Made by a program: the position numbers and the translations under genes
In this document: positions 16,436-38,474 of the stretch, piece after piece
Position numbering within the stretch: position 1 is the stretch's first letter
How the letters are laid out: every line of letters starts with the position of its first letter
Origin: an uncultured Flavobacteriales bacterium
GTDB lineage: Bacteria; Bacteroidota; Bacteroidia; Flavobacteriales; CAJXXR01
Direction: 5' to 3'
DNA length: 57,926 nucleotides
Assembly: GCA_913063375.1 (NCBI GenBank)
Contig: CAJXXR010000020.1
Span: 1 to 57,926, forward strand
Notes under the pieces: generated by a model
Told to the model about the DNA's origin: nothing
What the model saw: only the letters and a program-made list of their open reading frames with translations
The model's database searches: none

Positions 16436-16446
16436 AAAAGGAGACT

Positions 16447-18075: not shown

Positions 18076-21000
18076 CTATTTCTGAGACAGTACATTTCTA
18101 ATACCATCCAATCCTTCTGTTACAGATTCTATCTGAGAAACAATCATAGCCATTTGATTGTCTCCACCAAAACCTTTTAATTTTTGATTCTTTAAGAAAG
18201 TTCTTTTGATAGCTTCCCAACGAGTCATCTCCGTCGGTTCAATCCATCCAACCAATTCTTTAAACTTCAACAAATTTGCTTCCGCACTTGTTGTAAGCGT
18301 TTGAGATTCGTTTTCATAGGCACTTAGCACAAGCGTCTTTAATTCCTTTTCATTCATTATAGGAATAATCTTCTCTGCTATCTTATTCATATTTCTATAA
18401 GATCCTTGAAGCTTAAAAGAAGGCTCCTCTCTATATTGATCCTCCATGGCTGCAGACTTGATATACTGCATATTCACTTTCAATATGATATCACGTACCT
18501 GAATCAAATGTTTCAATACTGCAACATAATCATTGATCTCTTCTACAGTATGATTGGATTCAAAGGAAATTCCCTCTTGACTATCTGTTGTTGCCAGTTT
18601 AATAAGCGCATATAAATCCTTCTGACTTTTACCAGACAAATTGCGAAGGGTAGAATTTGAAGTCAAACAATTCTCTATATAACTACTCTTAAATACATCG
18701 GCACTGTCCCCGATGATATCCCCTAAATTGTAAATATCAGCTCTATTCGCCAACATATCTGGAATCTGAAACTTATCTCCACTTTCCGTATATGGGTTCC
18801 CAGCCATTACTACACAAACCTTCTTTCCACGAAGATCGTACGTCTTACTTTGCCCCTTGAACACACCTTCAATCTTTCTTTGCCCATCACTCAAGGAAAT
18901 AAACTTCTGCAGAAATTCTGGATTACAATGTTGAATATCATCCAAATAAATCATGATATTATCCCCCATTTCAAATCCTAAATTCAATTTCTCAATCTCC
19001 TCCCTTGCTCCAGCATTTGGTGCACTTTCAGGATCCAAAGAAGTTGTCTCATAGCCCAAGGAAGGCCCATTTATCTTTAAGAAAATCACCCCCAATCGAC
19101 TGGCGATATACTCCATTAAAGTAGTTTTCCCATATCCGGGAGGAGATATCAATAAAAGCATTCCCATTAAATCAGTTCGCTTATTAGCTCCAGCTGTCCC
19201 AATCTGTTTGGCTAGATTATCCCCTATTAATGGCAGGTACACCTTATTGATCAACTTATTTCGAACAAAAGAGCTCATTACCTTTGGCTTCAATTCATCC
19301 AATTTCAAATCCAGCTTATAACGATCTATAAAACTCTTTTTCAAAGTCTTAAATTGATTAAAAGCCGGAACTTCATTCAGCACAAACCCAAGCAACCTCT
19401 TTTTATAATCTTGATAATCCAGGTTTAATTTCTGCTTCTGAATCAAGGAATGTGTTCCATTTAGACCGTCAAGATCCATTTTCAACTCAGTATCGATCAA
19501 ATGCCTTTTATCTGGCCCTGACGTCAACAGCAACATGGAGGCTTCTGAAATTAAATCCTCACTTGTTGGAGTATGAGATTCTGAGTAAGCCTTCAACCAA
19601 CTTTTGGTAATGGAATATTTTGACGAGGCTTTTACCAAGTTTTTAGTCGATTCCTCAAAGCTGGTTTTCAATTTATTTTTATTCAAATAATTTGTAAAAG
19701 CTTCACATAGATCAAAGGCTTCCTTACCAATACTAAAGCTATCATCTGAGGCCAATTCTGTAAATAGATACTTCGATACCTCCACAATATCCGCTTCAGT
19801 AAAAATACCTTCCTCAAGAATAAATTCACCAATTTCCTCACTCAAATCATGAATGAGGTCATCAAATACTTTTGTATTAGGGAAAGCTTTCAAAATATTT
19901 CCTATTCCCTTTATTTGATGATTTAAAATAGAACTCTTATCAGCATCAATAAACAGATTCCAATAAAAGGAAGCACAAGCTCTTGCCGTAGAAGAGTACT
20001 TCAAGACTCCACCCAAATGACCTATCTGCAACAAGGCCTTTACAATAATCAAAGCATCCAAATCATGAACACCTTTTACATAACCTTCGTCATACCTAGG
20101 AGCCATCGTCTCCTCAATCAATTGCAACAAGGCTTCATCGGTTCCTTCCAGCCATTCCGAAAGGCTTTGCGTACCTTTTTCTATAACCTGCAACACCAAC
20201 CAAGCTAAGTACTCAGCACGGTAAATATTTTCATTTTCAGAGACCAAGCCCTGCTTCCATACAGGTCTAGTTCTTAAGAAATCAGGATCTACAATCTGCT
20301 CAAAAAAATTGGTCCCTGTAATATGGTAATACATCTCATTATTCCTTGGAACAATAGACAGATCCAGGAGTTGATTGTTGACAGAAAACTGATGTTTCCC
20401 AAAGGATATAATTCCATCTCCTTGATAAAGTTCTGACTTATCTCTAAGTTGTCTTATAGCTTCTTCATGCGTAGACTTCAACTTACTCTGGATATTATCC
20501 GACTTTACGGTATCACCTAGTTCAACCAGGTCTTTGATAATATTCCTAAGTTTATCAACCATTAGGTCTGATGCCAAATACCCATTGATAGCATTTACAT
20601 CCTTCATTCCAGATAGACGAGTATGAATCCCCTTAATTATTCTTTCAGCAGAAAATTCTAACTGGGCAGTTTTTTTATTTCGTCTTTCTGTAAGTTGAAC
20701 TTTACGAGACTCAAATGCATTGTAGACTTCTTCTCTTTTTTCTGAGATCTTATTCAAAAAGGAATCAAATTCACCAAACTTACCTTCCAACTCTTCGAGC
20801 TGAATCAATAATTTCGTCAAATACTCTTCACATTTCTCAGCTGTATCTGAGATATCCAAATAATTAACCGCACCCTGACCAATCAGCTTCAATTGAGAAT
20901 GGAAAACAGCCTCTCCCTCTGTCAATTGTAAATCCTTCCTTTTTCTCTTTAGGACGGAATTGATCTGATTAAAACGGGCATAGATGGCAGAAATATTATT

Positions 21001-23072: not shown

Positions 23073-25163
23073 TTAGTTTTGAATGCCTAAAGCACTTGGC
23101 GTGATATCTCCAATTCCAGCAGACTTAACAGCCGACATAAGATCATTCAGCACACCAGTAGTAGAAGTGTTATTGTTTTCTTGCATCATTCTAAACACAA
23201 TAGTAGAAATAGACAAGTTTTTCAAATCTTCTGAACTAATCCCAAATTGATCAATTAGACTTCTAATTTTTTCATTCAAATTTCTCCCGTCTACTTCGTC
23301 TAACAATTGCCCTTTCAATTCAGTCAATATTGCACTATTATTGATGGTTCTCTCTACACGTTTTCCGTTAGATATCGCACCAATAATTTTATCAAAGAAT
23401 ACAGCTTCTCCACCAACAATATCAATTTTGGCAGTTCTCAACGCTGTAGAAAGCACATCAGCTTGAGCATCCGCAATATCCTTTTGAATATGTATTTGAG
23501 CCAATTCAACTTGCTTTTGCATGTCCAATTCTAGCTTAAACTCTTCATGTTCTTTTCCAACACCATCCAACTGCTTCATTGCATCTGCTTTTCTGTGGAT
23601 CCCGTCAGCTTCTACATGGTATTTTTCTTTACTTACAGCGGCTTCTGCAAGTCCTTTCTTCTCATCAGCAATTGCTTTCAATTCAATTACCTGAGCTTCC
23701 GCATTACCCATTTCAACATCAGCCTTAGCTTGTGCTGATTGTGTTAATTCAATTGCTTTTGCTTCTGCAATAGCTTTCGCCTCCAGTATTTGCGCCTCTG
23801 CAATTCCTGAAGCTGCTTCATTTGCAACAGTGGCTTCTGCCATCACCTTGATTGCTTCTGATCTTTGAACAGAAGATTCCTGCTCTGCCTTGGCATCAAT
23901 CATGATTTGTTCAGCTTTAAACTCAGAAGATTTTTTACCGGCTTCCGCAGCTTTTATTTGTTGAACTAAATTAGCCTCGGCCAGCTCTTCGGCTTTAGTT
24001 ACAGCAACCAATTTTTCACGATCCGCTTGAGATTTAGTCTTAGTATCTTTGATGCTTTCCTCTTCAATAACAACCGTTTTTTCAATCGAAACACGCTCTC
24101 TAATTACCTCTTGAATACTTTTCTTCTCTTCTTCAATGGCCTTTTCTTTGGCAATTTGAGCAAGCGTTACTATTCTTTCTCTTTCCGTTACCTCCAACAA
24201 TCTATCCTTTTCAACCTTTTCAGTTTCAACGGCAGCGGTTCTCTCTTTATTTTTAGCAGCAACAATAACCTCTCTTTCCTTGTTTTGTTCTGCTATCTCT
24301 ATCTCTTCCGAAGCAATAATACGAGCCCTTTCAGACTTTAACCTTTCCTCTTCTACAACTTTAGCAATTTCCGCTTCTTCTCTAGATTTGATATTGGCAA
24401 CTTCCCTTTTTTGCTTTTCTTCAGTCTCGGCCAATTGTTTTTCCAATTGCAGAATAGCTTCCCTAGCTTCAACATCTTGTTTTGTAATGGTCTTCTCCTT
24501 ATTCTTTTCAATTTGATTGGATTCAATTTTTTCACGAGACGTGATTTGAATAATCTTCTTAATACCTTCAGCATCTAGAATATTATTTTGATCCATCTTG
24601 AACAAAGGTGTTTGCTCCAAATAATCAATGGCAGCATCATCCAAGATATACCCATTAAGATCTGTACCCAAACTATTTAGAATTTCCTCTCTAAAGGCAT
24701 CACGCTTATTGTATAGATCTACAAAGTCGAATTTTTTACCTACTGTTTTCAAGGCCTCTGAAAACTTTGAATCAAACAAATCATTCAATGACGCAGCATG
24801 CGAAGCCCTTGCACATCCTACAGATTGAGCTACTTGAATAACATCCTGAGCTGTTTTATTTACACGTACAAAAAACACAACCTTAATATCAGCACGCATA
24901 TTATCCTTACATACTAATCCATCAGAACCTTGACGCTCTATTAGAATATTTTTCAAGGAGATATCCATCACCTCCAATTTATGAAGGACAGGTACTACCA
25001 TCATTCCATTAAAGGATACTTTCGTACCTCCAACTCCCGTTCGAACTAGTGACTGTCCCTGAGACGTTTTTTTGTACCATTTAGCAACCATTCCGATGAC
25101 TCCCAACAATACGAGAACCAAAATTATTGTAACCATAAAAGTTGCATTTTGTAACATTTCCAT
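23073..25163 (-). CDS. Flotillin-like SPFH (band-7) domain protein
   Basis: N-terminal TM anchor, an SPFH core, then a long Glu/Ala/Lys-rich coiled-coil flotillin domain. 696 aa, like FloT/YqiK. Confidence 0.85.
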   Translation of the reverse strand: MEMLQNATFMVTIILVLVLLGVIGMVAKWYKKTSQGQSLVRTGVGGTKVSFNGMMVVPVLHKLEVMDISLKNILIERQGSDGLVCKDNMRADIKVVFFVRVNKTAQDVIQVAQSVGCARASHAASLNDLFDSKFSEALKTVGKKFDFVDLYNKRDAFREEILNSLGTDLNGYILDDAAIDYLEQTPLFKMDQNNILDAEGIKKIIQITSREKIESNQIEKNKEKTITKQDVEAREAILQLEKQLAETEEKQKREVANIKSREEAEIAKVVEEERLKSERARIIASEEIEIAEQNKEREVIVAAKNKERTAAVETEKVEKDRLLEVTERERIVTLAQIAKEKAIEEEKKSIQEVIRERVSIEKTVVIEEESIKDTKTKSQADREKLVAVTKAEELAEANLVQQIKAAEAGKKSSEFKAEQIMIDAKAEQESSVQRSEAIKVMAEATVANEAASGIAEAQILEAKAIAEAKAIELTQSAQAKADVEMGNAEAQVIELKAIADEKKGLAEAAVSKEKYHVEADGIHRKADAMKQLDGVGKEHEEFKLELDMQKQVELAQIHIQKDIADAQADVLSTALRTAKIDIVGGEAVFFDKIIGAISNGKRVERTINNSAILTELKGQLLDEVDGRNLNEKIRSLIDQFGISSEDLKNLSISTIVFRMMQENNNTSTTGVLNDLMSAVKSAGIGDITPSALGIQN

Positions 25164-25203: not shown

Positions 25204-25860
25204 TTAATCCAATGTTTCGTAAGCCTCTACAATGTAAAATTGAGATTCCTTAATATGGTTTACCACCAATATTCTATCTCCCCTTTTCACTTGACCTTCT
25301 GTAGTTTTGATATTTATTCGATAATTTGAACCAGAGATGATCATCTCTCCTTGCCCCATTCTTGTACTATTGGCAGAAACCACGACATATCCTACTGCCC
25401 CAACCAAATCCTGAACTTCATCAGCATCCTTATCCAACAATGCAAATATCTTAACAAATGGATAGGTCACTGGCTTTGCGACCAACAGACTCACAATAAA
25501 AATGGGCAACAATAATAAGAGTGAAAATAAGAAAGAACCATTTCCCAACATATGATTTACCGTTACAGACAAAAGCCACATCGGAATTACCAAAAAGGTT
25601 AGAAAAACCATTAAAGGTATTTTATCAATATTGAAAAAGGACAGGACATTATTTAACCAGGATACTGAAATATCAGGATTTCCATCACCTTCCACTTCGG
25701 CATCCACTTCAACCTCTGCCTCCATTTCAATCTCTATATCAAATGTGCTGATATCCAATGCTCCGAATATTACAAGCAGCCAATAAAAGATTATAAATAC
25801 CAGCAATGCAGTTGGTATGAAATTTACCGCAGAAAAAGCGGCATGAAAAAGTTCCATCAT
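25204..25860 (-). CDS. NfeD-like membrane protein (short form, C-terminal OB-fold)
   Basis: Hydrophobic N-terminal half with 3-4 TM segments and an acidic EIEMEAEVEVDAEVEGD insert. The C-terminal beta-barrel (GQGEMIISGSNYRINIKTTEGQVKRGDRILVV) resembles YuaF/NfeD partners of flotillins. Located 40 nt upstream of the flotillin gene. Confidence 0.55.
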   Translation of the reverse strand: MMELFHAAFSAVNFIPTALLVFIIFYWLLVIFGALDISTFDIEIEMEAEVEVDAEVEGDGNPDISVSWLNNVLSFFNIDKIPLMVFLTFLVIPMWLLSVTVNHMLGNGSFLFSLLLLLPIFIVSLLVAKPVTYPFVKIFALLDKDADEVQDLVGAVGYVVVSANSTRMGQGEMIISGSNYRINIKTTEGQVKRGDRILVVNHIKESQFYIVEAYETLD

Positions 25861-25919: not shown

Positions 25920-26618
25920 TTATTTATTCAATCCCATTTTGGCTTTAAGGGCTGCCAAACTAGTAGCCGCATTTAATTCCTTGAGAGTCGTGTCAATTTC
26001 AACGCGTACCAGTTCATCAGAATCATTCAATTGAGCATATCCCTCAGCACTTGCTTCTTCCTGCAGTACTTTATCTTTCATTCTCTCCAACATGGCAATG
26101 GTACCAGATGAATCTATTTGCGCTATGTCTTTATTCAATTCTTTGGTAGTGGAAGCAACTACGGCACGTGCCCTCAATGTTTTCAATTCAGAATCCCATT
26201 GATCAACATTTAACTTCACTCGGCTAATATTGGCATTAAGCTGGGACAATGATGCATCAATCTTTTGCTTGTTCTTAGATGACTCCTTACTAAATTGTAT
26301 CTGCTCTTCTCGAAGAATCAATGCCTGGGTCGCCAACCAGTCAGCTTGCTCTTTATCCAAATCTCCATTCTTAGCACGTTCCAAAAGAATGCTAGCCTTT
26401 TCTTCATAATCTTTAGCCTTTGCAAGAAATTTTTCATGCTCATTCCTAGCTCTAATAGACATCGCCTTTACTTCTGCAAATGCTTTAAGGTGACTCTCTA
26501 AATGATTTTTCATATCTCTAATTCCTTGCTCCATAAGTTTAATTGGATCCTCCAATTTATCGATTGCAGAATGGGATTCTGCTTCACCAATCTTAAATAA
26601 ACGTTTTAAAAAATTCAT
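25920..26618 (-). CDS. PspA/IM30 (Vipp1, ESCRT-III-like) family protein, paralogue 1
   Basis: 232 aa coiled-coil protein. N-terminus MNFLKRLFKIGEAESHSAIDKLEDPIKLMEQGIRDMKNHL is collinear with PspA. First gene of the cluster. Confidence 0.85.
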   Translation of the reverse strand: MNFLKRLFKIGEAESHSAIDKLEDPIKLMEQGIRDMKNHLESHLKAFAEVKAMSIRARNEHEKFLAKAKDYEEKASILLERAKNGDLDKEQADWLATQALILREEQIQFSKESSKNKQKIDASLSQLNANISRVKLNVDQWDSELKTLRARAVVASTTKELNKDIAQIDSSGTIAMLERMKDKVLQEEASAEGYAQLNDSDELVRVEIDTTLKELNAATSLAALKAKMGLNK

Positions 26619-27172
26619 TATTTAACTAGTATTGATTCCCTGAATTAAAATAAATTAAGTAGAATACATTAAAAAATAACAACCCTATGAACCTTAGAGG
26701 AGCATGGTTAAAATCCATACACAATTATACTATTATTTTTAGCCATTTCCAAAAAATACAACGTGTTTTTATAACAAAATTGATATATAATTCAAAAACA
26801 AAACGGCTTATCCACATAAAACACAGGACAAACAAAGAATAACACACTCAAAACTAATAAATTATATAAAAACTAAAAATACCAGCACCAAGCATACTAA
26901 TATTATTAGCAATAAATACAATTTGTATTTATCTTTCCCCACTATATTTGTACATTTGATCTTCATTAACAAACAGATTATTAAAGGGCAATAAATATCA
27001 ATTATTCAAAATATAATTGTTCTGATTAAAAAAAAGGTTTTTATTGCATTGATGATTATCTACAATCCCTAAAAAGATAATCTAAACCACAGATTATTAA
27101 ATAAATACATCAATTTCAAAGGTGTATTTATAACATATGAAGTTTTATACTTCTAAAGAATAAATAAGCAAA

Positions 27173-28714
27173 TTGAAAAAAAGTCAATCTAGAATACTAA
27201 AATTAGCACTTTTCGCCACAGGACTATCTGGGATAGTTGCTGAATATATTTTATCCACCCTTGCCACCTACTTCCTTGGAGATTCTGTATTCCAATGGAC
27301 CATGATCCTTTCCATCATGTTATTTTCCATGGGGCTTGGAGCTAGGCTTAGCATGAAATTCAAAACCAATATTTTAGAAAAATTTCTAATTGCTGAATTT
27401 CTACTAACCCTTCTTACTTCAACTGCCGCCCTAACTACCTATTTCTTTATGGGGCATGCTGAAAATCTGGGATTCATCATATACAGCTTCTGTATTAGTA
27501 TTGGCCTTTTGATAGGTATGGAAATCCCACTGGTAACTAGGGTTAATGAAGAAAATGAAGAACTAAGAACCAATATTGCAGGTGTATTAGAAAACGACTA
27601 TTATGGAAGTTTGATAGGTGGTTTATTCTTTGTATTCATTGGTCTTCCTTATTTAGGCCTTACCCACACGCCATTTATTTTGGGTACCATCAACTTCCTA
27701 GTAGCCATATTACTTTTCATCAAACTAAAAGATCATATTGCTAAAAGGTTCAAAATTGGCTTTGCCATCACCATTCCAAGTTTAATAATTATACTAAGCT
27801 TCCTTAGCTATAATGCAGATGAGATAGTTCTATACGGGGAGCAAAAAAGATACAATGACAAGGTTGTTTTCTCTAAACAAACCAAATACCAAAAAATCAC
27901 AATCACCCAATGGCAAGAAAATTACTGGCTATACCTTAATTCCAGCAAACAACTTTGCACGTTTGATGAGTGGCTTTACCATGAACCACTGGTACATCCA
28001 GTAATGAAACTAACAACACACCCTAAGCATGTATTAATCCTAGGCGCAGGAGATGGTTGCGCAATCCGAGAGGTATTGAAATACGAAAATGTTGAAAAAA
28101 TCACCCTCGTAGACATTGATCCTGAGATGACCAAAATTGGTAGGTCCAACGAAATTTTCGTTAAGATGAACGACAGCGCCTATTACGATCCCAAAGTAAC
28201 GGTTATCAATCAGGACGCATTCCAATTTCTAGAAAATAATGAAGAATTTTACGATGTCATGATCCTAGATTTCCCTGATCCAAAAAGCATTGATATCAAC
28301 AGAGTTTATACCAAGGAATTTTACACCCTCTGCAACAAAAGACTTCGCCCATTGGGACATATCATTACCCAAGCCGTAAGCCCATATTATACAACAAAAG
28401 CCTTTAGGTCCATTGAAAAAACATTAGCTGCCTCTGGATTCAATACACTTCCAATTCACAACCACGTATACTCTTTTGGCGAGTGGGGATGGGTAATAGG
28501 TTCCAAATTCCAAGATAAGGAGAAAATGAAACAGCATCTACTGAAATCCAATTATCAAGATTTAGATGTACAATGGATCACCAATGAATCCATTAATCTT
28601 ATGACCTCCTTTGGCAAAGACCTTATCAAAGCAGATGACATAGAAGTAAACACCATTCATAACCCTGTCTTATACCGCTATTACCTAGACGGAACTTGGG
28701 CTAGATACCTGTAA
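27173..28714 (+). CDS. Membrane-anchored spermidine synthase-like aminopropyltransferase (paralogue 1)
   Basis: About 200 aa with ~7 TM helices, then a Spermine_synth domain (VLILGAGDGCAIREVL, TLVDIDPEMT, ILDFPDP). Confidence 0.75.
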   Translation: MKKSQSRILKLALFATGLSGIVAEYILSTLATYFLGDSVFQWTMILSIMLFSMGLGARLSMKFKTNILEKFLIAEFLLTLLTSTAALTTYFFMGHAENLGFIIYSFCISIGLLIGMEIPLVTRVNEENEELRTNIAGVLENDYYGSLIGGLFFVFIGLPYLGLTHTPFILGTINFLVAILLFIKLKDHIAKRFKIGFAITIPSLIIILSFLSYNADEIVLYGEQKRYNDKVVFSKQTKYQKITITQWQENYWLYLNSSKQLCTFDEWLYHEPLVHPVMKLTTHPKHVLILGAGDGCAIREVLKYENVEKITLVDIDPEMTKIGRSNEIFVKMNDSAYYDPKVTVINQDAFQFLENNEEFYDVMILDFPDPKSIDINRVYTKEFYTLCNKRLRPLGHIITQAVSPYYTTKAFRSIEKTLAASGFNTLPIHNHVYSFGEWGWVIGSKFQDKEKMKQHLLKSNYQDLDVQWITNESINLMTSFGKDLIKADDIEVNTIHNPVLYRYYLDGTWARYL

Positions 28715-28717
28715 TCT

Positions 28718-29797
28718 ATGTGGCTATTTAGCAGAAAAAAAGACTTTGGTATTCTGTACTTACCAGTATGGATAATCTGGATACTCCTATTCCTTCTTCC
28801 CAACGCAACACTCCATAGTGAACTTCCATTATGGGTTTGGGTCGTATTCATATTAGGAATAGATGTAAGCCATGTATGGAGCACTATTTTTAGAACCTAT
28901 TTTGACAAGCAAGAATTTAAGAGACACAAAACCATTTTAATTCTAGCCCCGATTTTTGCATTCATTATCCTGTTAGGAATTGCGCTAGAATCTTCTTTAT
29001 ACTTTTGGAGGACATTGGCTTATTTAGCGGTTTTCCACTTCATGAAACAACAATATGGGTTTTTCGCACTCTACAGTGCTAAAACAAAATCTTTTAACAA
29101 ACATAGATTTCTCAATGATAAATGGGTTCTCTACACCAGTATGCTATTCCCGGTACTATTCTGGCATTTCACCGACCGAAATTTTGACTGGTTCCTAGCT
29201 GGTGATTTCTTCTCTTTCAACTACCAACTAAGTGAGCAATTACAAAATGTACTAATCATTGCCTACTGGGGGATTTTACTAGCTTGGTTTATCGAAGAGA
29301 TTCACTTAATCAAAACAAAAGCAATAAAGCTATCATATGGGAGGATGTTATGGATGGGAACCACAGCTTTCAATTGGTTTCTAGGAATTATTTGGTTCAA
29401 CTCTGATGTTGCATTTACGCTAACCAATGTAGTTGCACACGGCATCCCTTATATCGCATTGATAATCATTTATCAAAATGCAAAAAGAAGCACAAAGAAT
29501 ACACTTCTTTATAAAAATGCATTTATTACTGGAGCAAGTATTTTGGTCTTTTCCTTCCTTTTTGCATTTTCTGAAGAATATCTTTGGGATATGTTTCTAA
29601 ACCGTGAAAAAACTGCATTTTTCAACAGTATTTTCCAGTATAGATTTGATAGTCTTACCAATGAAAAACTACAGTCCCTACTGCTAGTCACACTATCATT
29701 ACCACAGGTTACACATTATATCTTGGACGGATTTATTTGGAAAATGAATGACTCCAATCCACATCTTAAAAATATTTTAACAAAAGGAAATGGATAG
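28718..29797 (+). CDS. Polytopic membrane protein with conserved His clusters, function unknown
   Basis: 359 aa, 8 or more TM segments, recurrent His motifs (HVWSTIF, FHFMKQQYG, HGIPY). Starts 3 nt after the stop of 27173..28714 and overlaps the next gene by 8 nt. Confidence 0.55.
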   Translation: MWLFSRKKDFGILYLPVWIIWILLFLLPNATLHSELPLWVWVVFILGIDVSHVWSTIFRTYFDKQEFKRHKTILILAPIFAFIILLGIALESSLYFWRTLAYLAVFHFMKQQYGFFALYSAKTKSFNKHRFLNDKWVLYTSMLFPVLFWHFTDRNFDWFLAGDFFSFNYQLSEQLQNVLIIAYWGILLAWFIEEIHLIKTKAIKLSYGRMLWMGTTAFNWFLGIIWFNSDVAFTLTNVVAHGIPYIALIIIYQNAKRSTKNTLLYKNAFITGASILVFSFLFAFSEEYLWDMFLNREKTAFFNSIFQYRFDSLTNEKLQSLLLVTLSLPQVTHYILDGFIWKMNDSNPHLKNILTKGNG

Positions 29798-31301
29798 AAG
29801 AATGTTCTTAAAGTTAAGCGGAGGATTACTTTTCCTATCTGCTTGTGACAATGATTTTACCCAAAAATCTAAATTGAAAAATACTAGATTTAAAATCCAC
29901 ATCGACTCCAATGATAAAATTGGACACTTGGTACGATCTGCCGTCCAACTACCAATTTCAAGTACCATCAAAACAGAGACATTAATTGTAGGGGCAGGAA
30001 TATCTGGACTATCTGCTGCATGCACATTAAAGTCAAATGACTTTCAACTGTGTGAATTGAATCCAAACTTAGGCGGAACCTCAAGTGCCGTATCTATCCA
30101 TGGGAATTTATATTCACAAGGCGCCCATTACGATTTAGCCTATCCTAGCAATTATGGGAAGGATGGCTTAGAACTACTAGAACAGTTAAACGTTATCCAG
30201 TTTAACAGCACTAAAAACCTTTGGGAATTCAAAGACAAACAATACTTGATCTCTTCAAAAAATGAAGAAGCTTGTTATGATAACGGGAAATTGAGGGCTT
30301 CCATTTTAGAAGATTCCGAATTAAAGAAAAACTTTCTATCCTTAATAAAAGAATACGATAATCAATTCCCCCTACCAAGTACAGCGATCTCATCAGAATT
30401 ACATCATTTAGATCATATTTCTTTTGAAGACTACCTTAGGAAGTATCTACCTATTGACAATCATTTCCTTGAAGCAATTGACTATCAAATGTTGGATGAT
30501 TATGGAGCCGCAAGTAAACAAATATCTGCTCTTGCAGGTATCCATTACTATAAATGCCGCCCCTATTACAACCATCAGGAAATTGAACTATTTTCGCCAC
30601 AAAAAGGAAATTACTACTTCATAGAAAAGATGGTTGAGCAACTTCCTGAAGAAAACATTAACAGCAACCATTTAGTATTTAAGATTGAGCAAGAAGGAGC
30701 CAAATGGAAAGCAGACGTATTGGATGTTTTAAACATGTCAAGAAAACAATTCATTGTAGACAAATTGATTTATGCAGGACAAAAGCACGTTTTAAAATAT
30801 GCTCACCCTTCCTCATATCAAGAATTCAGTGACATAGATTATGCACCTTGGATTGTCATAAATTTAGAATTGGACGACTCACTACTTGACGGAAGTAAAT
30901 GGCAAAATGACTTTTTATCTCCCAATAGATCATTCCTAGGATTTGTTGATTCAAAAAATCAAGACAATACAAACACTCGAGTATTAACAGCCTACCACTG
31001 CTTCCCGGACATACACCACTTTATTGTTCAAAATATTTCAACCCATGCAGAAGACTTGGTAAACGAAACAATCAACAACATATCCCTATACTTTAAAAGA
31101 GATATTAGCCCAATGGTAAAACAAGTCCATGTAAAACTATTGGGACACGCCATGCCAATTCCGAAATTGGGTTACTTAACCAAGCAAAGAGTATTGGAAA
31201 AGGATGGTTTAGCATTTGCAGGGGCTGACACGGGAAGATTACCACTTATGTTCGATGCAATGGATTCTGGAATACAGGCCAGCAAATCGCTCGAAATATA
31301 A
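29790..31301 (+). CDS. Tat-exported FAD-dependent amine-oxidase-family lipoprotein
   Basis: Twin-arginine motif DRRMFLK plus lipobox LSAC. Dinucleotide fold VGAGISGLSAAC...LNPNLGGT, typical of flavin amine oxidase and protoporphyrinogen-oxidase-like enzymes. Confidence 0.6.
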   Translation: MDRRMFLKLSGGLLFLSACDNDFTQKSKLKNTRFKIHIDSNDKIGHLVRSAVQLPISSTIKTETLIVGAGISGLSAACTLKSNDFQLCELNPNLGGTSSAVSIHGNLYSQGAHYDLAYPSNYGKDGLELLEQLNVIQFNSTKNLWEFKDKQYLISSKNEEACYDNGKLRASILEDSELKKNFLSLIKEYDNQFPLPSTAISSELHHLDHISFEDYLRKYLPIDNHFLEAIDYQMLDDYGAASKQISALAGIHYYKCRPYYNHQEIELFSPQKGNYYFIEKMVEQLPEENINSNHLVFKIEQEGAKWKADVLDVLNMSRKQFIVDKLIYAGQKHVLKYAHPSSYQEFSDIDYAPWIVINLELDDSLLDGSKWQNDFLSPNRSFLGFVDSKNQDNTNTRVLTAYHCFPDIHHFIVQNISTHAEDLVNETINNISLYFKRDISPMVKQVHVKLLGHAMPIPKLGYLTKQRVLEKDGLAFAGADTGRLPLMFDAMDSGIQASKSLEI

Positions 31302-32843
31302 CTAATACAAATCCCAATTACCATCTAAATAGTAACGGTACAGTACTGGAGAATTTATAGTATTTACTTCCACCTTAGAGGTGTCAAACAAGGGTTTTCC
31401 AAAAGAAGTAATCAACTGAATAGACTCCCTATTCAACCATTTATTATTCAAATAGCTATAATCAGATTGACGCATTATATCAATCATTTTATCTTTAGTT
31501 AGACGCTTACTACCAATTATCCAACCCCATTCCCCTAAGGTCAAAACCTGATTATGCATCGGTAATGTATGGAATCCGGAAGATGACATTGTAGTCTCTA
31601 TGCACTTAAAAGCCTTAGTAGCATAATAGGGACTTCCAGCTTGGGTAATGATATGACCATTTGGGCGCAATAAACGATAAGCCATCTGATAAAATTCCTG
31701 CGTATACAACTTATTCAAATCGATACTTTTGGCATCAGGTAGATCAACAATTATTAAGTCAAAATAAGTTTCACACTGCTCTAAATATTTAAACCCATCC
31801 TGATTTAATATAGCAACCTTCGGATTAAAAAGGGCTGAATCATTATACTGTGTTAAGCCTTTAAAATCCATTCCTATTCGAGTCATTGCAGGGTCCAAAT
31901 CCACCAAGGTGATTTGATCCACATCCTCGTATTTTAAAAGCTCCTTCACATTAAAGCCATCTCCACCACCAATTATTAGAACGTCCTTATGCTCTGGAGT
32001 CAATGCAACTACTGGATGTACCATCGGCTCATGGTACAAAAACTCATCGAAGGTACTTAGTTGTTGATTTCCATTTATAAACAACCAATAATGCTCCTTC
32101 CATTGGGTAATGGTTATTTTCTGATAAGGAGTTTGCTCCGTGTATACAATCTTATCTTTATACCTAGATTGCTCACCAAACAGAACTACCTTTTCTGAAA
32201 GCGAAAATCCAACCATCAACAACAAACTAATGAAAAAGGAAACAGAATAAACCCACTTTTTTAATTGCGGATAATAGGACTTATAGTTCCAATACAATAA
32301 GACTGCAACAGTAAAATTTAAGGCACCGAAGGCGAATGCTGTATTGGTAATACCCAAGTATGGAAGACCAAAAAAGGCAAATGACAATCCCCCTATCAAA
32401 CTACCAATATAATCCCAAGACATAATATTGGATATATTCTTATCCAAACTTTCATGCTTCTCATTCAAGCGTGTTACTAGCGGGATTTCAAAACCAATAC
32501 AAACACCAATCAATAAGGCCAAACCATAAATTAGAATATGGATGAAATTGGTTGCTGAAGCTAAAGAGTAAACAACTAAAGGAGAAAAACTTATTAATAA
32601 TGATAAGGCAAATTCAACTGCAATAAAAGTGGCCAACAAATCTTTTGTCACAAATCGACTTAGACGACTCCCCACCCCCATTGCAAACAACATAATAGAC
32701 AAAACAACTGTCCATTGTATAATAGTATCACCTATAAAATAAGAGGCAAGGGTAGATAAAATAAATTCAGAAGTAAAGCCAGAAATTCCTGTGGCAAAAA
32801 TGGCCAACTTCAACCAAGTACCCTTGTCGATTTTAAACTGCAT
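31302..32843 (-). CDS. Membrane-anchored spermidine synthase-like aminopropyltransferase (paralogue 2)
   Basis: 513 aa, same architecture as 27173..28714 (VLIIGGGDGFNVKELL, TLVDLDPAMT, IVDLPDA). Its stop codon abuts the stop of the convergent FAD-oxidase gene (TAACTA). Confidence 0.75.
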   Translation of the reverse strand: MQFKIDKGTWLKLAIFATGISGFTSEFILSTLASYFIGDTIIQWTVVLSIMLFAMGVGSRLSRFVTKDLLATFIAVEFALSLLISFSPLVVYSLASATNFIHILIYGLALLIGVCIGFEIPLVTRLNEKHESLDKNISNIMSWDYIGSLIGGLSFAFFGLPYLGITNTAFAFGALNFTVAVLLYWNYKSYYPQLKKWVYSVSFFISLLLMVGFSLSEKVVLFGEQSRYKDKIVYTEQTPYQKITITQWKEHYWLFINGNQQLSTFDEFLYHEPMVHPVVALTPEHKDVLIIGGGDGFNVKELLKYEDVDQITLVDLDPAMTRIGMDFKGLTQYNDSALFNPKVAILNQDGFKYLEQCETYFDLIIVDLPDAKSIDLNKLYTQEFYQMAYRLLRPNGHIITQAGSPYYATKAFKCIETTMSSSGFHTLPMHNQVLTLGEWGWIIGSKRLTKDKMIDIMRQSDYSYLNNKWLNRESIQLITSFGKPLFDTSKVEVNTINSPVLYRYYLDGNWDLY

Positions 32844-32860
32844 TCAAGTAGAATTTAAGC

Positions 32861-33751
32861 CTAAGAAAAGCTCATACAGATTAGCATAGAACCACCCACA
32901 TATGCAAAGGCTTCAATTACAGCAGCGCCTACATTTGGATGTTCTTGGTTGATGATTTCATCTACCAATTTTCTTTTCGGAAGTAAGATCTTATCTGTCA
33001 AGATCCTAGCAATAGGCAATAACAACAGACCAATACCAGTTTCAAACAATAGATTCTCACCCACCATCATCCAACTTTCAGCCTCCATTTGAGCACCGAA
33101 TCTTATCAAATTCCCAATAGCAACTATTGCGCCTGCGAATCCTATTCCAACCGCTACATTATCTTTTTCAATATGCTCATGAATATCATAAGGTGTGATG
33201 GCATTATAAACCAATGCAACCAACATCAAAGCGACTTGAGCAAAGAGCCAGAATAGTAAAATACCAATAAAATTGTCTTGATTCTCTGCTATGACACCGC
33301 TAATAATCAATCCATTTGCAATACAAACAGCTCCCTCAATAACTCCTAAACCAACATTTTGATCTTCTATAATTTCCTTTTTTACGGAATACTTTCTCAA
33401 AACAACCTTATCAGAGATGATCATAGAAACATTTAGCAATACAATTGCCAATAATCCATAAATGGAAATATCTATAATATTATCTACGATATGATCAACT
33501 CCGTCTCCCGCATAAACGGCTGATATGACAATAACCAACCCAACATAATACCCAACATGAGCAAATGAAAAAGCTAGGTTATCTTTTTCCACCAATTCAT
33601 GATCTAAATCGATATCCTTATGAATTAATTGATATACTTTCTTCCCTACTAAAAATAGAACAAAGCTAACAGCCAAGTAAACCAAAGCCGTAAGTAGATT
33701 ATCTAATGATGATAAAAAATTAAAATGCATACTAGTATAGTTTAAATTCAA
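32861..33751 (-). CDS. Membrane protein with two tandem DUF350-like repeats (YjfL-like)
   Basis: Two internally repeated halves, each ...Y..I...D...E....N.A......G..V.......AV. The second ends ITPYDIHEHIEKDNVAVGIGFAGAIVAIGNLI. DUF350 assignment is from memory of the YjfL family. Confidence 0.45.
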   Translation of the reverse strand: MNLNYTSMHFNFLSSLDNLLTALVYLAVSFVLFLVGKKVYQLIHKDIDLDHELVEKDNLAFSFAHVGYYVGLVIVISAVYAGDGVDHIVDNIIDISIYGLLAIVLLNVSMIISDKVVLRKYSVKKEIIEDQNVGLGVIEGAVCIANGLIISGVIAENQDNFIGILLFWLFAQVALMLVALVYNAITPYDIHEHIEKDNVAVGIGFAGAIVAIGNLIRFGAQMEAESWMMVGENLLFETGIGLLLLPIARILTDKILLPKRKLVDEIINQEHPNVGAAVIEAFAYVGGSMLICMSFS

Positions 33752-33759
33752 TTAGGGAA

Positions 33760-34458
33760 TTATTTACCAAATCCAGATCCACGAGATCTACCTCCTGATC
33801 TACTTCTTGATGAAGACCAACCAGATTTTGTAGCACGCCTAGAGAAAAAAGATGGTCTAGACTTCTTAGTTTGAGCAGAATTGGTACCATATTTAGAGTA
33901 CTTTCCTTCTTTTGGACCATAATAGCTTCTTTTTCCATAATAGCCTCCCCCACGATATGTATTATAATCGCTTCTGTAAACAGGTCTGTTCATCATTCCG
34001 AACATCTGACTCATAAACATATATCGACCATAAAATGACCAAAATGAACTACCATTATGAGTTCTCCATTCACCATACTTGGAATCACCCACATATCTAT
34101 AACCTGGAGGAACTGCAACTTTAGATAAGGATCCATCTGGGCCCTTTTCCAAAACAACCATCCCTAAATTACCTTCATTCTTCCAAAAGAATTCTTTCTC
34201 CACTTCTTTCCAATCAGAAGTAGATTCAGTAGGAATACTATCAGCAACACGAATTACCTTATACTTGTGTTTATAGGTCTTAAAGAAAGTCCCATCTACA
34301 TCCATATCTTCAATGATGACAGAAAATTCTTTTTCATCACTTAACTCGACAATATAGCTATCAAGCGGTGATTTTTTATACTCTCGACCACCACAACTAC
34401 TCAAAATAGTAAACAACACTACGGCTATTCCACTAAAAAGAATTGATTTTAATTTCAT
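33760..34458 (-). CDS. Lipoprotein with Gly/Ser/Arg-rich C-terminal tail (possibly DUF1190/YjfM-like)
   Basis: Lipobox LSSCGG. A central aromatic/Met-rich block (FWSFYGRYMFMSQMFGMMNRP) and a GGGYYG...SRSRSGGRSRGSGFGK tail resemble E. coli YjfM. Confidence 0.4.
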   Translation of the reverse strand: MKLKSILFSGIAVVLFTILSSCGGREYKKSPLDSYIVELSDEKEFSVIIEDMDVDGTFFKTYKHKYKVIRVADSIPTESTSDWKEVEKEFFWKNEGNLGMVVLEKGPDGSLSKVAVPPGYRYVGDSKYGEWRTHNGSSFWSFYGRYMFMSQMFGMMNRPVYRSDYNTYRGGGYYGKRSYYGPKEGKYSKYGTNSAQTKKSRPSFFSRRATKSGWSSSRSRSGGRSRGSGFGK

Positions 34459-34465
34459 CTATGTT

Positions 34466-34996
34466 TTATCTAGGTAGAATGTTTGAAAACTCAAACGCAT
34501 CTACATTTTTACCTATTGCCGCACCGAATTCTTCTTCTCCCCATCGGTCAATAGAAATCAACTCCTTGGTTTCAGAATGTACATACATCCAATTCACCAA
34601 TTCAGATCCTTCTTCTTCACCTTCAATATAACAAATTCCTTGACTGGACTCGGTACGCTTATACGTTTTATTATTATACACCAATCTATTCGGTGCCTCA
34701 TCATTTGCAACAATACTATTCACTAAGTCGGCATCAATTTCAAAAATATCCACCTTCTTCCAAACTAAACATACCAATTTATCGTCGTCTTCGACGCTAA
34801 GGTAACAATCTTCAGTCCCAGAATCTAAAAAATATTCTTTGCTATAAAAATTATTTCCCCAATCATAGGTATATACCTTTTTCACCTCCCAAGTTTTCAT
34901 GAAATAATCCACAAGGAATCCCAATTTCATATCATTCAAGGTGAAATCTACATTCGGCTCTTCCTTTTTAGATTTAAAAAAATCAAATATTCCCAT
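34466..34996 (-). CDS. Hypothetical cytoplasmic protein (176 aa)
   Basis: Clean ORF sitting 3 nt after the stop of the upstream K+ channel gene. No diagnostic motifs. Confidence 0.5.
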   Translation of the reverse strand: MGIFDFFKSKKEEPNVDFTLNDMKLGFLVDYFMKTWEVKKVYTYDWGNNFYSKEYFLDSGTEDCYLSVEDDDKLVCLVWKKVDIFEIDADLVNSIVANDEAPNRLVYNNKTYKRTESSQGICYIEGEEEGSELVNWMYVHSETKELISIDRWGEEEFGAAIGKNVDAFEFSNILPR

Positions 34997-34999
34997 AAT

Positions 35000-35815
35000 T
35001 TATTTATTTTTCATGGTTTTACCACAATGCTCACAAACACAATCTTCTTTATCTTCCTTTTTATCCTTTTCAGTATTTCCGAATCCATTGGCTAAAATCC
35101 CAGCCGGAAGCGCAAATATTCCAATACCGAGGATAGCCATTACTCCGGCCATAACTTTACCCATAGCGGTAATAGGATAAACATCACCATAACCAACAGT
35201 AGTAAGTGTAGCTACTCCCCACCACATGGTAGCTGGGATACTCGAAAATGTTTCAGGCTGAACTTCATTCTCTATAAAATACATCAAACTTGAAGCAACC
35301 ACCAATAAAGTTATTACTGCAAAAAGCGATATAATTAATTCCTCTTTAGCAGCTTTCATCACTCTCTTTATATGTGAAAGTGCTTTATTATACCTTCCCA
35401 ACTTTAATATTCTAAACAATCGAAGCAAACGAACCCCTCTCAAAATTCTTAAATCCGCCTTTATTAATAATGGAACGAAGGCAGGGATTATAGCCAATAA
35501 ATCTACAATACTATAGAAGGAAAAAAAATATTTAATACGACCAGCAATTGGCCTACTATAGGCACTCTTCTCAGTAATAGACCAAATTCTTAATAAATAT
35601 TCAATGGAAAAAATCCCTATAGATATCCATTCAAGAATGGAAAAAATCTGTTGGAATTCAATCCTAATCCAGGAAACCGATTCCAAAATAACAGCTAAAA
35701 TATTTAGAAGGATTAAGGTGATTATTAAGAAATCTACACGACGACTTATCTCATCTCCCTTTTTCCCTTTCTCTAAAATTTCGTAACAACGACTTTTAAG
35801 GCTCCTGTAACTCAT
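35000..35815 (-). CDS. Voltage-gated K+ channel (6-TM Kv-like, KvAP-type)
   Basis: S4 voltage sensor RILRGVRLLRLFRILKLGR, pore helix and selectivity filter TLTTVGYGD, S5/S6 helices. The start codon abuts the speD stop (35815/35816). Confidence 0.8.
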   Translation of the reverse strand: MSYRSLKSRCYEILEKGKKGDEISRRVDFLIITLILLNILAVILESVSWIRIEFQQIFSILEWISIGIFSIEYLLRIWSITEKSAYSRPIAGRIKYFFSFYSIVDLLAIIPAFVPLLIKADLRILRGVRLLRLFRILKLGRYNKALSHIKRVMKAAKEELIISLFAVITLLVVASSLMYFIENEVQPETFSSIPATMWWGVATLTTVGYGDVYPITAMGKVMAGVMAILGIGIFALPAGILANGFGNTEKDKKEDKEDCVCEHCGKTMKNK

Positions 35816-36178
35816 TTACGATACTTGCATTATTCCCAATCCTCTCTTTACACTTTGATAACTATGATTTTTTGATTGTAATTTTTCTACCAAATAATCA
35901 TAGGTTTTCAAATAATCCATTTTCAGATTACAGGTGAAAAAATCCACTGCAGCATAACCGTTCTCTGGCCAAGTATGAATAGCCAAATGACTCTCTGCAA
36001 CAACAACAACTCCTGTTACTCCTTGAGGTGAAAATTTGTGAAAAACTGATTTTATCACAGTTGCTTTGGAAGCCTTAGCAGCTGCAATCATATCCACCTC
36101 CAATTCCTCCATATTATCTAACGCATCAAAAGAACAATCATTGAATTCCATTAAAATATGTAAGCCTAATTCCGCCAT
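35816..36178 (-). CDS. speD: S-adenosylmethionine decarboxylase proenzyme (class 1, pyruvoyl-dependent)
   Basis: 120 aa. Self-cleavage/pyruvoyl site VVVVAESHLAIHTWPE and FTCNLK match SpeH/SpeD. Confidence 0.8.
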   Translation of the reverse strand: MAELGLHILMEFNDCSFDALDNMEELEVDMIAAAKASKATVIKSVFHKFSPQGVTGVVVVAESHLAIHTWPENGYAAVDFFTCNLKMDYLKTYDYLVEKLQSKNHSYQSVKRGLGIMQVS

Positions 36179-36346
36179 CTATTTATTCCTTTTCTTTTAT
36201 ATCGTCTCCAAAAATACACAATGGTAAAAATTATAATTACCGGAAACAACAAACTAATAATCAGTGAAAAAGTCCACCAAATTGCCAAAATAATCAATAA
36301 TTGAATGATTAATGGGATTATATTCTTGAAACGCACAATTATAATT

Positions 36347-36382
36347 TTTTCTAAAAACCAAAAGAGGCCAAATAGCCTCTTT
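36347..36382 (-). terminator. Rho-independent terminator after PspA paralogue 2
   Basis: On the minus strand: aaagaggc/tatttg/gcctcttt hairpin followed by tggttttt, 20 nt past the PspA-2 stop. It separates PspA-2 from the speD operon. Confidence 0.6.
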
Positions 36383-36402
36383 CAATTCTTGATTAGGAAA
36401 TA

Positions 36403-37125
36403 CTATCCTTTATTTTCTTCTTTTTTCGCTGCCATCTTTGCCTTCAAAGCTGCCAAGCTATCTGATGCTTTACTAGCACCTGGATTACCAATAGCTTTAT
36501 CAATTTCCTCATCTACAGATCTTGATTCATTGGAAATATCACCATAAGCTTCTGACAAGGCTTCTTCTTGCTCTACCTTTTCCTTCATTCTTTCTAACAT
36601 AGAAATGGTATCTGAAGAATCAATAGAAGCCATTTGCTTATTTAGATTTTTGGTAGCGGAAGCAACCTTCACCCTAGCTTTTAAGGTTTTTAGCTCATTC
36701 TCCCATGAACCAATCTTTGAGCGTAAGGTCTTAACATTGGCTTCCAATTTTCTAACATTACCACCAAATTGAACCTGATCCTTTTGTAAACGAGTAGCAT
36801 TAGCCTCGCTGTCCACCTTTCGGTTTAACGCCTCGCTTGCCAATCTATCTGCTTCCTCTGCACCTATTTGGCCTGATTCAGCTCTTTGCAATAACAACAT
36901 AGCTTTTTTCTCATAATCTGAGGCTTTATTTTGTTCATTGCTAATATCATTTCTTGACCTGATCTCTAAAGCTTTCACTTCAGCCAATGCCTTTAAACAG
37001 CTTTCAAGATCCTTTTTCATATCTCTAATCCCCTGCTCAGTCATTTTGATAGGGTCTTCTAACTTATCCACTACGGAATTTACTTCTGATTTACCCAAGG
37101 TAAATAATCGCCTAAATATACTCAT
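36403..37125 (-). CDS. PspA/IM30 family protein, paralogue 2
   Basis: 240 aa. N-terminus MSIFRRLFTLGKSEVNSVVDKLEDPIKMTEQGIRDMKKDL parallels paralogue 1 and PspA. Confidence 0.85.
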   Translation of the reverse strand: MSIFRRLFTLGKSEVNSVVDKLEDPIKMTEQGIRDMKKDLESCLKALAEVKALEIRSRNDISNEQNKASDYEKKAMLLLQRAESGQIGAEEADRLASEALNRKVDSEANATRLQKDQVQFGGNVRKLEANVKTLRSKIGSWENELKTLKARVKVASATKNLNKQMASIDSSDTISMLERMKEKVEQEEALSEAYGDISNESRSVDEEIDKAIGNPGASKASDSLAALKAKMAAKKEENKG

Positions 37126-37137
37126 AACTACTGTTCC

Positions 37138-37533
37138 TTATCTTTTTGAAAATGTGATTAACTGATCTGAATATTCAGATAATAATAAACCTAAAGAATT
37201 GATAGACCCTTCTAGTTCATTTTGATCCAAATTTAGAATCTGCAAAGTATCCCTGAAAATTAACTTCTCCCCTGTTTCATCTAATACAAAAGCTCCATGA
37301 AGGATATCTCTGTTTTTCTGTAATAGTTGCTTATACACAGATGGGTCTGCATCTTTTAAATCTAGGATATGCTGCTCCAAAATCAAAAATGGATCTGCAC
37401 AGCCCAAAACGAAGTTCTTAATACCAACACTCTCATCCTCGATCACTAAAATACCATCATCTTCATTTTCCACAGTGATTAGATATCCGATGTCAAGGAG
37501 GAAATTCTTGACTTTTTCAAAGCTACTTGTCAT
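37138..37533 (-). CDS. Small acidic cytoplasmic protein co-transcribed with PspA-2 (YbjN/YjfI-like?)
   Basis: 131 aa, 12 nt upstream of PspA-2. The fold assignment is a guess. Confidence 0.45.
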   Translation of the reverse strand: MTSSFEKVKNFLLDIGYLITVENEDDGILVIEDESVGIKNFVLGCADPFLILEQHILDLKDADPSVYKQLLQKNRDILHGAFVLDETGEKLIFRDTLQILNLDQNELEGSINSLGLLLSEYSDQLITFSKR

Positions 37534-38003
37534 GTCTTTATTTTTCTTTATATCAGTCTATTAAATGGATTGTAATCTCATCATCTTCACAACCACTAAT
37601 TTATTTAAAATCTGCTGATTTTTTAAATTTTTTTGATGATTTCAGCATTCAAATTTATCCGTTTGCTAAATCCGATACACAATGATACTACAATTTTTAG
37701 TAATTGCACAATATTTTAGCAAAATAATTAGTGAAAATACAAGAATCACTCAAATAAACCTCCTTATCAAACGCACATCAGACTTAACAATACGCCCAAA
37801 GACTCAATAAATCCAATACTTTACACATACGATAGCAATATTGCTAATATAATTAGTAAACAAACCAAGCCAATTACAAATTCTTATCACTATTTGAAAT
37901 AATCTATATAAATTCTTGCATAAAAATGTAAGTACTGAATGAAAGAACCTATTTCACTTTAGAAATAAAATGACCTTATGATCAAAATTGATAACTTTGG
38001 ATT

Positions 38004-38429
38004 ATGAAAAATTACAGTGAAGACGAAATTGATGATTTAATCAAACGATTTGAAGCAAGAAGTCTACCGAAGGTAGAATGGACACATGAAGCTCATCTTG
38101 TTGTTGCTATTTGGTATGCACAAAAAAATGGGATGAATCAAGCACTAGACCTGGTGAGGGATTATATTACACAACACAACCAATCCGTCGGGACTCCCAA
38201 CACTGACACAGAGGGATACCATGAATCGATTACGAAATTTTGGTTGATAGCTGCTGATAAGTTCCTACAAACTGGACAATCACTATCAATTTCTCAGGCA
38301 TGTAATGCCTTTATCAATTCTCCACAAGGTAAAAGTAATTACCCTTTAAATTTCTATTCAGAAAAACGACTGTTTTCAGTTGAAGCAAGACGCTTTTGGA
38401 TAAGGCCTGATATAAAAGAAATGAAATAA
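38004..38429 (+). CDS. Hypothetical protein (141 aa)
   Basis: ORF with a downstream bidirectional terminator. No motif recognised. Confidence 0.45.
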   Translation: MKNYSEDEIDDLIKRFEARSLPKVEWTHEAHLVVAIWYAQKNGMNQALDLVRDYITQHNQSVGTPNTDTEGYHESITKFWLIAADKFLQTGQSLSISQACNAFINSPQGKSNYPLNFYSEKRLFSVEARRFWIRPDIKEMK

Positions 38430-38434
38430 CGCAT

Positions 38435-38474
38435 AAAAAAAAGCCGTTCCAAATTATTGGAACGGCTTTTTTTA
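38435..38474. terminator. Bidirectional terminator shared by 38004..38429 (+) and pruA (-)
   Basis: aaaaaaa, then agccgttcc/aaattatt/ggaacggct, then tttttt. Confidence 0.75.

Follow-up and report, generated by a model that had tools for sequence, protein, structure and literature searches.

In a 57,926-nucleotide stretch of DNA from an uncultured Flavobacteriales bacterium (contig CAJXXR010000020.1 of assembly GCA_913063375.1, forward strand; hereafter the window), two genes for PspA/IM30 proteins lie 10 kb apart, and our analysis favours, with a probability of roughly 70%, the reading that they encode two YjfJ-type PspAs of different sub-clades, each heading a different known operon class. 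The first, PspA1 (232 residues; 25920–26618, minus strand), is of the type found with a flotillin module that also encodes a very large AAA+ ATPase, and the second, PspA2 (240 residues; 36403–37125, minus strand), is of the type found with an aminopropyl module and is encoded next to a CesT/Tir-like chaperone. A sequence-only reading of this DNA had already proposed a pair of PspA/IM30 paralogues with related N termini. Both proposals were borne out: the listing of open reading frames (ORFs) has the two pspA genes at exactly the coordinates that it gave, Pfam places both products in PF04012, the proteins are 46% identical over 229 residues (E = 4e-65) and the N-terminal peptides that it quoted match the translations.

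Against a Pfam gathering score of 33.9 for PF04012, PspA1 scored 105.5 bits (E = 4e-30, residues 4–226) and PspA2, which is the well-conserved member of the pair, scored 154.4 bits (E = 4e-45, residues 2–230). Searching the PDB with phmmer matched Vipp1/PspA chains (among them 6zvr, 7o3w and 8qbw) to residues 3–228 of PspA1 (E = 3e-8) and to residues 1–232 of PspA2 (E = 1e-19), and as judged by these alignments both proteins are homologous over their full length to solved ESCRT-III-like chains. The N-terminal segment M..[FL].RLF..G... is conserved in sequence. Neither protein reached the NCBIfam cut-off of 243 bits for the classical PspA equivalog TIGR02977 (38.2 bits for PspA1 and 64.2 bits for PspA2), and PspA2 aligns end to end with Escherichia coli YjfJ (24% identity, full length, E = 1e-8), with an MxI..LFTLGKS N terminus common to both; because of these two results we assign both proteins, by sequence, to the YjfJ type. 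No PspB, PspC or PspF family was matched among the neighbouring genes scanned with Pfam. Searches of PADLOC-DB returned nothing apart from coiled-coil noise, a match of PspA2 to JetC at E = 6e-4, and the reading of the locus as an anti-phage defence system, which PADLOC does not support, was dropped.

Both contexts are instances of operon classes that have already been published. Ravi et al. (2024, mSystems, PMC11237479) described a dyad of CesT/Tir and PspA genes as the core of a neighbourhood class, in which the dyad is joined either by a transmembrane band-7–flotillin protein, a novel AAA+ ATPase and a YqiJ/YuaF protein (group 1) or by a fusion of a seven-transmembrane (7TM) domain to a spermidine-synthase-like domain, DUF350, a lipoprotein and DUF4178 (group 2). 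The PspA1 module has the gene set and order of group 1, with PspA followed by a YqiJ-like protein, a flotillin composed of transmembrane, SPFH and coiled-coil regions and a very large AAA+ ATPase, but it lacks the CesT/Tir gene that defines the dyad, and its PspA is the most divergent member of the family. The PspA2 module shares with group 2 the CesT_Tir_1–PspA dyad, DUF4178, the lipoprotein, DUF350 and the transmembrane–aminopropyltransferase fusion. It additionally contains a voltage-gated-type (Kv-like) channel and a 56-residue transmembrane ORF, and the window adds a convergent operon with a paralogous fusion, a 359-residue transmembrane protein and an amine oxidase with a Tat-like motif and a lipobox. 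The wiring of the two paralogues to different modules, as described in the sequence-only reading, is therefore not new; the same study states as a generality that context is not kept among paralogues in genomes with several PspA copies (PMC11237479).

The first operon runs on the minus strand from PspA1 through a YqiJ/NfeD-like multi-transmembrane protein of 218 residues with a C-terminal beta-rich domain (25204–25860) and a YqiK-type flotillin-family membrane protein of 696 residues (23073–25163), which has an N-terminal transmembrane segment, an SPFH-like region and a long Glu/Ala-rich coiled coil, to the final gene, which encodes the AAA+ ATPase of 1627 residues (18076–22959); the gaps are 59, 40 and 113 nucleotides. 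Pfam resolves the ATPase into DUF3686 (E = 4e-182), DUF7902 (E = 4e-25) and a C-terminal AAA domain (E = 2e-8), and its gene comes after the flotillin gene in all 80 loci retrieved with the flotillin query. Direct searches of Pfam, NCBIfam and PDB sequences were empty for the 696-residue and 218-residue proteins alike, and both were identified only by comparing profiles of their homologues with E. coli YqiK and YqiJ. The profile for the flotillin, built from 25 homologues, aligned with YqiK, which RefSeq names a 'flotillin family inner membrane protein', at an hhalign probability of 99.9% (E = 2e-37, residues 13–422). Pfam Band_7 was matched by 2 of these 25 homologues (best E = 3e-10), and when the flotillin alignment was run as a profile against the PDB, the sole result was a marginal match to QmcA (E = 0.036). 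The corresponding profile for the 218-residue protein aligned with YqiJ at a probability of 86.6% (E = 4.5e-6); Pfam YqiJ_N was matched by 10 of its 16 homologues and the NfeD C-terminal domain weakly by 2 of them (E = 0.014). What had been called an NfeD–flotillin–ATPase operon thus stands as to the flotillin and the ATPase, with 'NfeD' more precisely YqiJ-like.

The second operon, likewise on the minus strand, begins with the CesT/Tir-like chaperone (131 residues; 37138–37533; Pfam CesT_Tir_1, PF22550, E = 6e-53), the earlier 'small acidic partner', which is indeed acidic, with an isoelectric point of 4.3. PspA2 comes next, followed by a very hydrophobic, basic membrane ORF of 56 residues (36166–36336; isoelectric point 12, grand average of hydropathy 0.9), an S-adenosylmethionine decarboxylase (AdoMetDC, encoded by speD) of class 1b size (120 residues; 35816–36178; AdoMet_dc, E = 8e-38), the Kv-like ion channel (271 residues; 35000–35815; Ion_trans, E = 2e-33, and Ion_trans_2, E = 2e-13), a DUF4178 protein (176 residues; 34466–34996; E = 3e-21), a predicted lipoprotein with a Gly/Ser/Arg/Tyr-rich tail and the lipobox LSSC in its translation (232 residues; 33760–34458), a tandem DUF350 (YjfL-family) membrane protein in which Pfam matches two stretches (296 residues; 32861–33751; E = 4e-56) and, as the final gene, SynB, a fusion of a membrane domain to an aminopropyltransferase (513 residues; 31302–32843; Spermine_synth, E = 5e-36). 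Pfam thus agrees that speD, a Kv-like channel and DUF350 lie beside PspA2, as had been read from the sequence. The gaps between successive genes are 12, 66, −13, 0, 3, 7, 8 and 17 nucleotides, the negative value being the overlap of the 56-residue ORF with the start of speD, and gene spacing in both minus-strand sets is operon-like. There is no third PspA and no second CesT in the window.

We compared these contexts with loci gathered by a genome scan with the flotillin (80 loci) and a metagenome scan with PspA2 (80 more), mapped by tblastn. Among 115 related PspA contexts, 75 were flotillin modules, 27 aminopropyl modules, 8 both modules in series and 5 stand-alone dyads, and of the 110 loci with full context, 104 had CesT directly upstream of PspA, as had 4 of the 5 stand-alone dyads. 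The usual state in Bacteroidota is hence one CesT–PspA dyad heading a flotillin module, an aminopropyl module or both in series. The in-series super-operons under a single PspA (L004, L009, L010, L050, L102, L108, L112 and L126) start with the CesT–PspA dyad, continue with YqiJ, flotillin and AAA+ ATPase and then with DUF4178, lipoprotein, DUF350 and aminopropyltransferase; they often adjoin aminopropyl-only clades on the PspA tree, and one of them, L004, encodes the closest flotillin (80% identity). Flotillin operons of the PspA1 type were seen in more than 70 Bacteroidota loci, and YqiJ–flotillin–AAA modules without any PspA occur in several taxa, for example Pontibacter, Labilibacter and Myroides. 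Because the flotillin and aminopropyl modules are recurrently fused or adjacent, these contexts suggest that the two serve one membrane-maintenance pathway.

The genome closest to the window by PspA2 (L001, GCA_002163335.1) has the entire aminopropyl island in the same order at 70–90% identity, with a homologue of orf141 in the place that PspA1 and the flotillin module occupy in the window. In another locus, L007, SynA, the second membrane-domain–aminopropyltransferase fusion, diverges from the flotillin module as it does in the window, but an unrelated gene of 257 residues replaces PspA1. The 10-kb proximity of the two paralogues, which the sequence-only reading had noted, is accordingly not conserved, with another gene in that place in L001 and a flotillin module without PspA in L007. 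As for orf141 itself (38004–38429, plus strand, no Pfam match), it adjoins CesT in the window, and its 70%-identical homologue (L001, 20157–20582) adjoins SynA; this placement at opposite sides of the island marks a local rearrangement between the two genomes.

Two Aquimarina genomes, sp. MAR_2010_214 and sp. RZ0 (L084/L085 and L168/L169), each carry one PspA per module, the loci being either 1.57 Mb apart or on different contigs. PspA1 shares 53% identity with the Aquimarina flotillin-module copy and 47–49% with the aminopropyl-module copy, and the corresponding comparison for PspA2 gives 69% against 60%, pairing it with the aminopropyl copy; these reciprocal values are consistent with orthology by module. 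The CesT gene of Aquimarina accompanies the flotillin copy, and neither a CesT gene nor a remnant of one is present at the aminopropyl copy, the reverse of the window. Two PspAs and one CesT were thus found wherever a pair of paralogues was examined, namely in the window and in both Aquimarina strains, a pattern which hints at a single chaperone for both polymers or at a dependence on it that can be lost on either side.

Trees were built by neighbour-joining on Kimura distances, and their deep branching is poorly resolved. On the context-labelled tree of 115 PspAs, context was clustered: it changed 10 times, compared with an expectation of 24 and, across 1000 permutations, never fewer than 18. 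Weak support places PspA1 next to L004 and L015, and copies of the L004 type share its C-terminal MGLNK/MGLDK. An 'RLFKIG' signature occurred in 28 flotillin contexts, in 1 context with both modules in series (L004), in 2 stand-alone dyads and in no aminopropyl context.

Several results weigh against the assignment of each PspA to its own operon class. PspA subtype and module are coupled only loosely: context has switched at least 10 times on the tree, often beside fused operons, and the clade of PspA2, which is mostly aminopropyl-context, yet holds a flotillin-context PspA at 74% identity (L005). The placement of PspA1 is weakly supported, its best sister being recovered in 28% of bootstraps and the backbone branches measuring 0.001–0.02. 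As L007 shows, a flotillin module need not have a PspA of its own. At near-invariant positions PspA1 is less conserved than any other protein of the set, which is also compatible with relaxed constraint, and both operon structure and partner specificity are read from the order of the genes. The earlier proposal of sub-functionalised ESCRT-III-like scaffolds consequently keeps part of its force: the pairing of copies by module in Aquimarina speaks for it, and the loose coupling with its repeated context switches speaks against it.

PspA1 is an outlier in its family. No homologue above 58% identity was found for it among 5.8 billion proteins, in which homologues of PspA2 reach 88%, and PspA2 is the nearer of the two for all 235 retrieved homologues. 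No terminal branch on the tree is longer than that of PspA1 (0.49; the mean root-to-tip distance is 0.28), and in Tajima triplets PspA1 has three to four times more unique substitutions (for example, 53 against 15, chi-square 21). At columns that are at least 95% conserved it keeps 84% of residues, the lowest value among the 115 proteins, compared with a mean of 98.8% and a minimum of 91% in the others. Finally, a CesT gene or remnant upstream of PspA1 was not detected by a tblastn search of 26619–27172 with CesT (best E about 1), and this region is non-coding.

These properties could mean that PspA1 is redundant, is under relaxed constraint and is heading for loss, with the CesT–PspA2 dyad alone being important and serving both modules. 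The long branch, the lack of a close orthologue, the losses at near-invariant columns and the missing CesT, so common elsewhere, all point that way, as do L007, which lost or never had a PspA at this place, and the modules of Pontibacter, Labilibacter and Myroides. The protein itself argues otherwise. Its ORF is intact, full-length and collinear with the family, it has no internal indels, and it retains the N-terminal helix and the core motifs ELKTL.AR. Its 45 replacements have a mean BLOSUM62 score of +0.36, compared with −0.71 ± 0.30 when permuted, a value reached in 1 of 2000 permutations, and 63 of 68 hydrophobic columns are retained; an identical PspA1 sequence is also found on two contigs of the protein collection. 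Because the substitutions are this conservative, PspA1 is probably functional. We read its history as evolution that sped up once the CesT partner was lost but stayed under constraint, and we consider decay to be an unlikely, minority alternative.

Another alternative starts from the spacer between PspA1 and the SynA operon, which the sequence-only reading had proposed to coordinate both. Here the divergent spacer (26619–27172) would be a region of shared bidirectional control that co-regulates PspA1 and the SynA/amine-oxidase operon and couples both PspA systems. The description of the spacer was accurate: it is 554 bp long, close to the 550 bp given, and AT-rich, with a GC content of 23% compared with 35% for the window. 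It also contains Bacteroidetes-type TAnnTTTG (−7) boxes in both directions (26943 and 26951 on the plus strand, 26849 on the minus strand), and several lineages have the flotillin and aminopropyl modules linked in the genome. The boxes, however, are at the background density of 1.6 per kb. No Rfam family was found in the spacer region, the terminator scan did not rise above shuffles, and sigma-70-like sites were at or below shuffle expectation under a model of doubtful relevance for Bacteroidota. The upstream region of the CesT–PspA2 operon (37534–38003; 470 bp, 26% GC) contains a single TAnnTTTG box (37650, minus strand), and comparison of the two regions revealed no k-mers or operator in common beyond shuffles. 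Neither the spacer nor the arrangement around it is kept in L001, L007 or Aquimarina, with orf141 in that place in L001, the 257-residue gene in L007 and the modules far apart or on separate contigs in Aquimarina. We therefore regard shared control from this spacer as very unlikely.

A recent, lineage-specific duplication as the origin of the two genes, with incidental contexts, is largely refuted: although the PspA1 sequence is unique to this genome and the genes are near neighbours, their 46% identity is lower than that of PspA1 to many foreign flotillin-context PspAs (50–58%), PspA1 joined the PspA2 clade in 5 of 100 neighbour-joining bootstraps, its neighbours being flotillin-context sequences, and the reciprocal similarities to the Aquimarina pair fit orthology by module. 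The split into one paralogue per module recurs in the two Aquimarina genomes, which goes against the outcome that the sequence-only reading had named as its refutation, a recent duplication lacking a conserved differential context in relatives.

Two YjfJ-type PspAs from different sub-clades, each with its own operon class, remain our preferred reading, and a mechanism may be sketched for it. Both proteins would use the conserved N-terminal helix to polymerise on stressed inner membrane, at its cytoplasmic face. PspA1 would cooperate with the flotillin/YqiJ scaffold, with the AAA+ ATPase as a Vps4-like remodeller, and PspA2, held or delivered by the CesT-like chaperone, would work with aminopropylation of an envelope or membrane substrate by decarboxylated S-adenosylmethionine. 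Having its own PspA in each module may have left the flotillin-module copy free to adapt to its partners or to CesT-independence, and we propose that PspA1 accelerated because the copy was freed in this way once each module had its own PspA. That PspA1 became CesT-independent and co-evolved rapidly with the flotillin, YqiJ and AAA+ proteins, and would thus be a natural separation-of-function ESCRT-III-like variant, is a conjecture that we hold to be doubtful.

The aminopropyl island extends beyond the PspA2 operon. A second operon on the plus strand converges on it and consists of SynA (513 residues; 27173–28714; Spermine_synth, E = 2e-38, residues 268–447), a multi-transmembrane protein of 359 residues with no family assignment (28718–29797) and a flavin adenine dinucleotide (FAD) amine-oxidase-like protein of 503 residues (29790–31301; Pfam NAD_binding_8 and Amino_oxidase). 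The wider island, including this second fusion operon, is conserved in L001, L007, L091/L092 and Aquimarina. SynA and SynB are paralogues with 52% identity, each with a Spermine_synth domain within residues 267–447 and a hydrophobic N-terminal half; SynA is 89% identical to its L001 counterpart and 80% identical to that of Aquimarina, and SynB is 84% identical to that of L001. Searches of Pfam, NCBIfam and PADLOC with the 359-residue protein found nothing. Its gene also stands between SynA and the amine oxidase in L001 (70% identity), L007, L091 and L092, and is absent from the Aquimarina island. As a separate observation, the stop codons of the amine-oxidase and SynB genes lie back to back at 31301/31302, with 0 nucleotides between them, and a terminator cannot fit there.

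The amine-oxidase-like protein is conserved in L001, L007 and L085. Its translated N terminus reads as a Tat-like (twin-arginine translocation) RRMFLK motif followed by a lipobox, LSAC, which suggests a putative exported, lipid-anchored flavoprotein. In the PspA2 operon, the 232-residue lipoprotein has no Pfam match and occupies the slot of the lipoprotein that Ravi et al. called 'Ctha_1186', a slot kept in all aminopropyl-module loci. The 56-residue ORF between PspA2 and speD is conserved in L001–L003 (66% over 35 residues, E = 2e-11). The label 'polyamine operon', used in the sequence-only reading, is probably a misnomer. The genes match the clusters of AdoMetDC with aminopropyltransferases fused to major facilitator superfamily (MFS) or 7TM domains, for which Li and co-workers are said to have proposed a non-polyamine role in 2019.

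E. coli has counterparts of both modules in yjfIJKLMC and yqiJK, with PspA2 resembling YjfJ, DUF350 corresponding to YjfL, and the flotillin and the YqiJ-like protein being homologues of YqiK and YqiJ, but there the yjf and yqi systems are unlinked, and yjfJ is coupled to an ATP-grasp (glutathionylspermidine-synthetase-like) gene set rather than to an aminopropyltransferase. Pairwise BLAST of the CesT_Tir_1 protein against E. coli YjfI (DUF2170) was not significant (E = 0.53). In Bacillus subtilis, PspA is reported to be linked to the membrane by the SPFH protein YdjI, which is encoded with it in pspA-ydjGHI, an experimental precedent for a PspA and an SPFH/flotillin-family protein in one operon (PMC8581546); that operon differs in having YdjG and YdjH (TPM domain) and no AAA+ ATPase or YqiJ, and its PspA belongs to another clade. 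Paralogue pairs in differing contexts are also known from cyanobacteria (Vipp1 and PspA) and from the two PspA paralogues of Corynebacterium, whereas the contexts in the window are two variants of one CesT/Tir–PspA class that are fused elsewhere under one PspA.

Other features of the window were noted outside these modules. Two ORFs of 576 residues (9473–11203 and 12328–14058, both minus strand) share 84% identity and match nothing in Pfam; they look like the product of a recent local duplication, and the protein, which is uncharacterised, is probably secreted. In a strongly A-rich stretch at 16180–16935 (plus strand, AT skew 0.37) lie genes for two small proteins that are rich in Lys and Glu, resemble coiled coils and have N termini like those of signal peptides or lipoproteins. 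Between orf141 and an aldehyde dehydrogenase gene, a 17-bp perfect hairpin with runs of A and T (38436–38473) looks like a bidirectional intrinsic terminator. At the window edge, Rfam matched a partial tRNA (1–74, minus strand, 39.5 bits), which ARAGORN did not call.

The locus is thus largely ordinary and adds little that is conceptually new; what is unusual is the fast-evolving, CesT-less PspA1 and the pattern of two PspAs with one CesT. Its value is comparative, in that the same modules occur under one PspA, with one PspA each or, in Pontibacter, Myroides and L007, with none. This range could bear on the specificity of PspAs for their operon partners, on the role of the CesT/Tir-like chaperone and on whether PspA is a target of the DUF3686 AAA+ ATPase in the way that ESCRT-III is of Vps4, and the cultured Aquimarina strains with both paralogues would offer a practical system.

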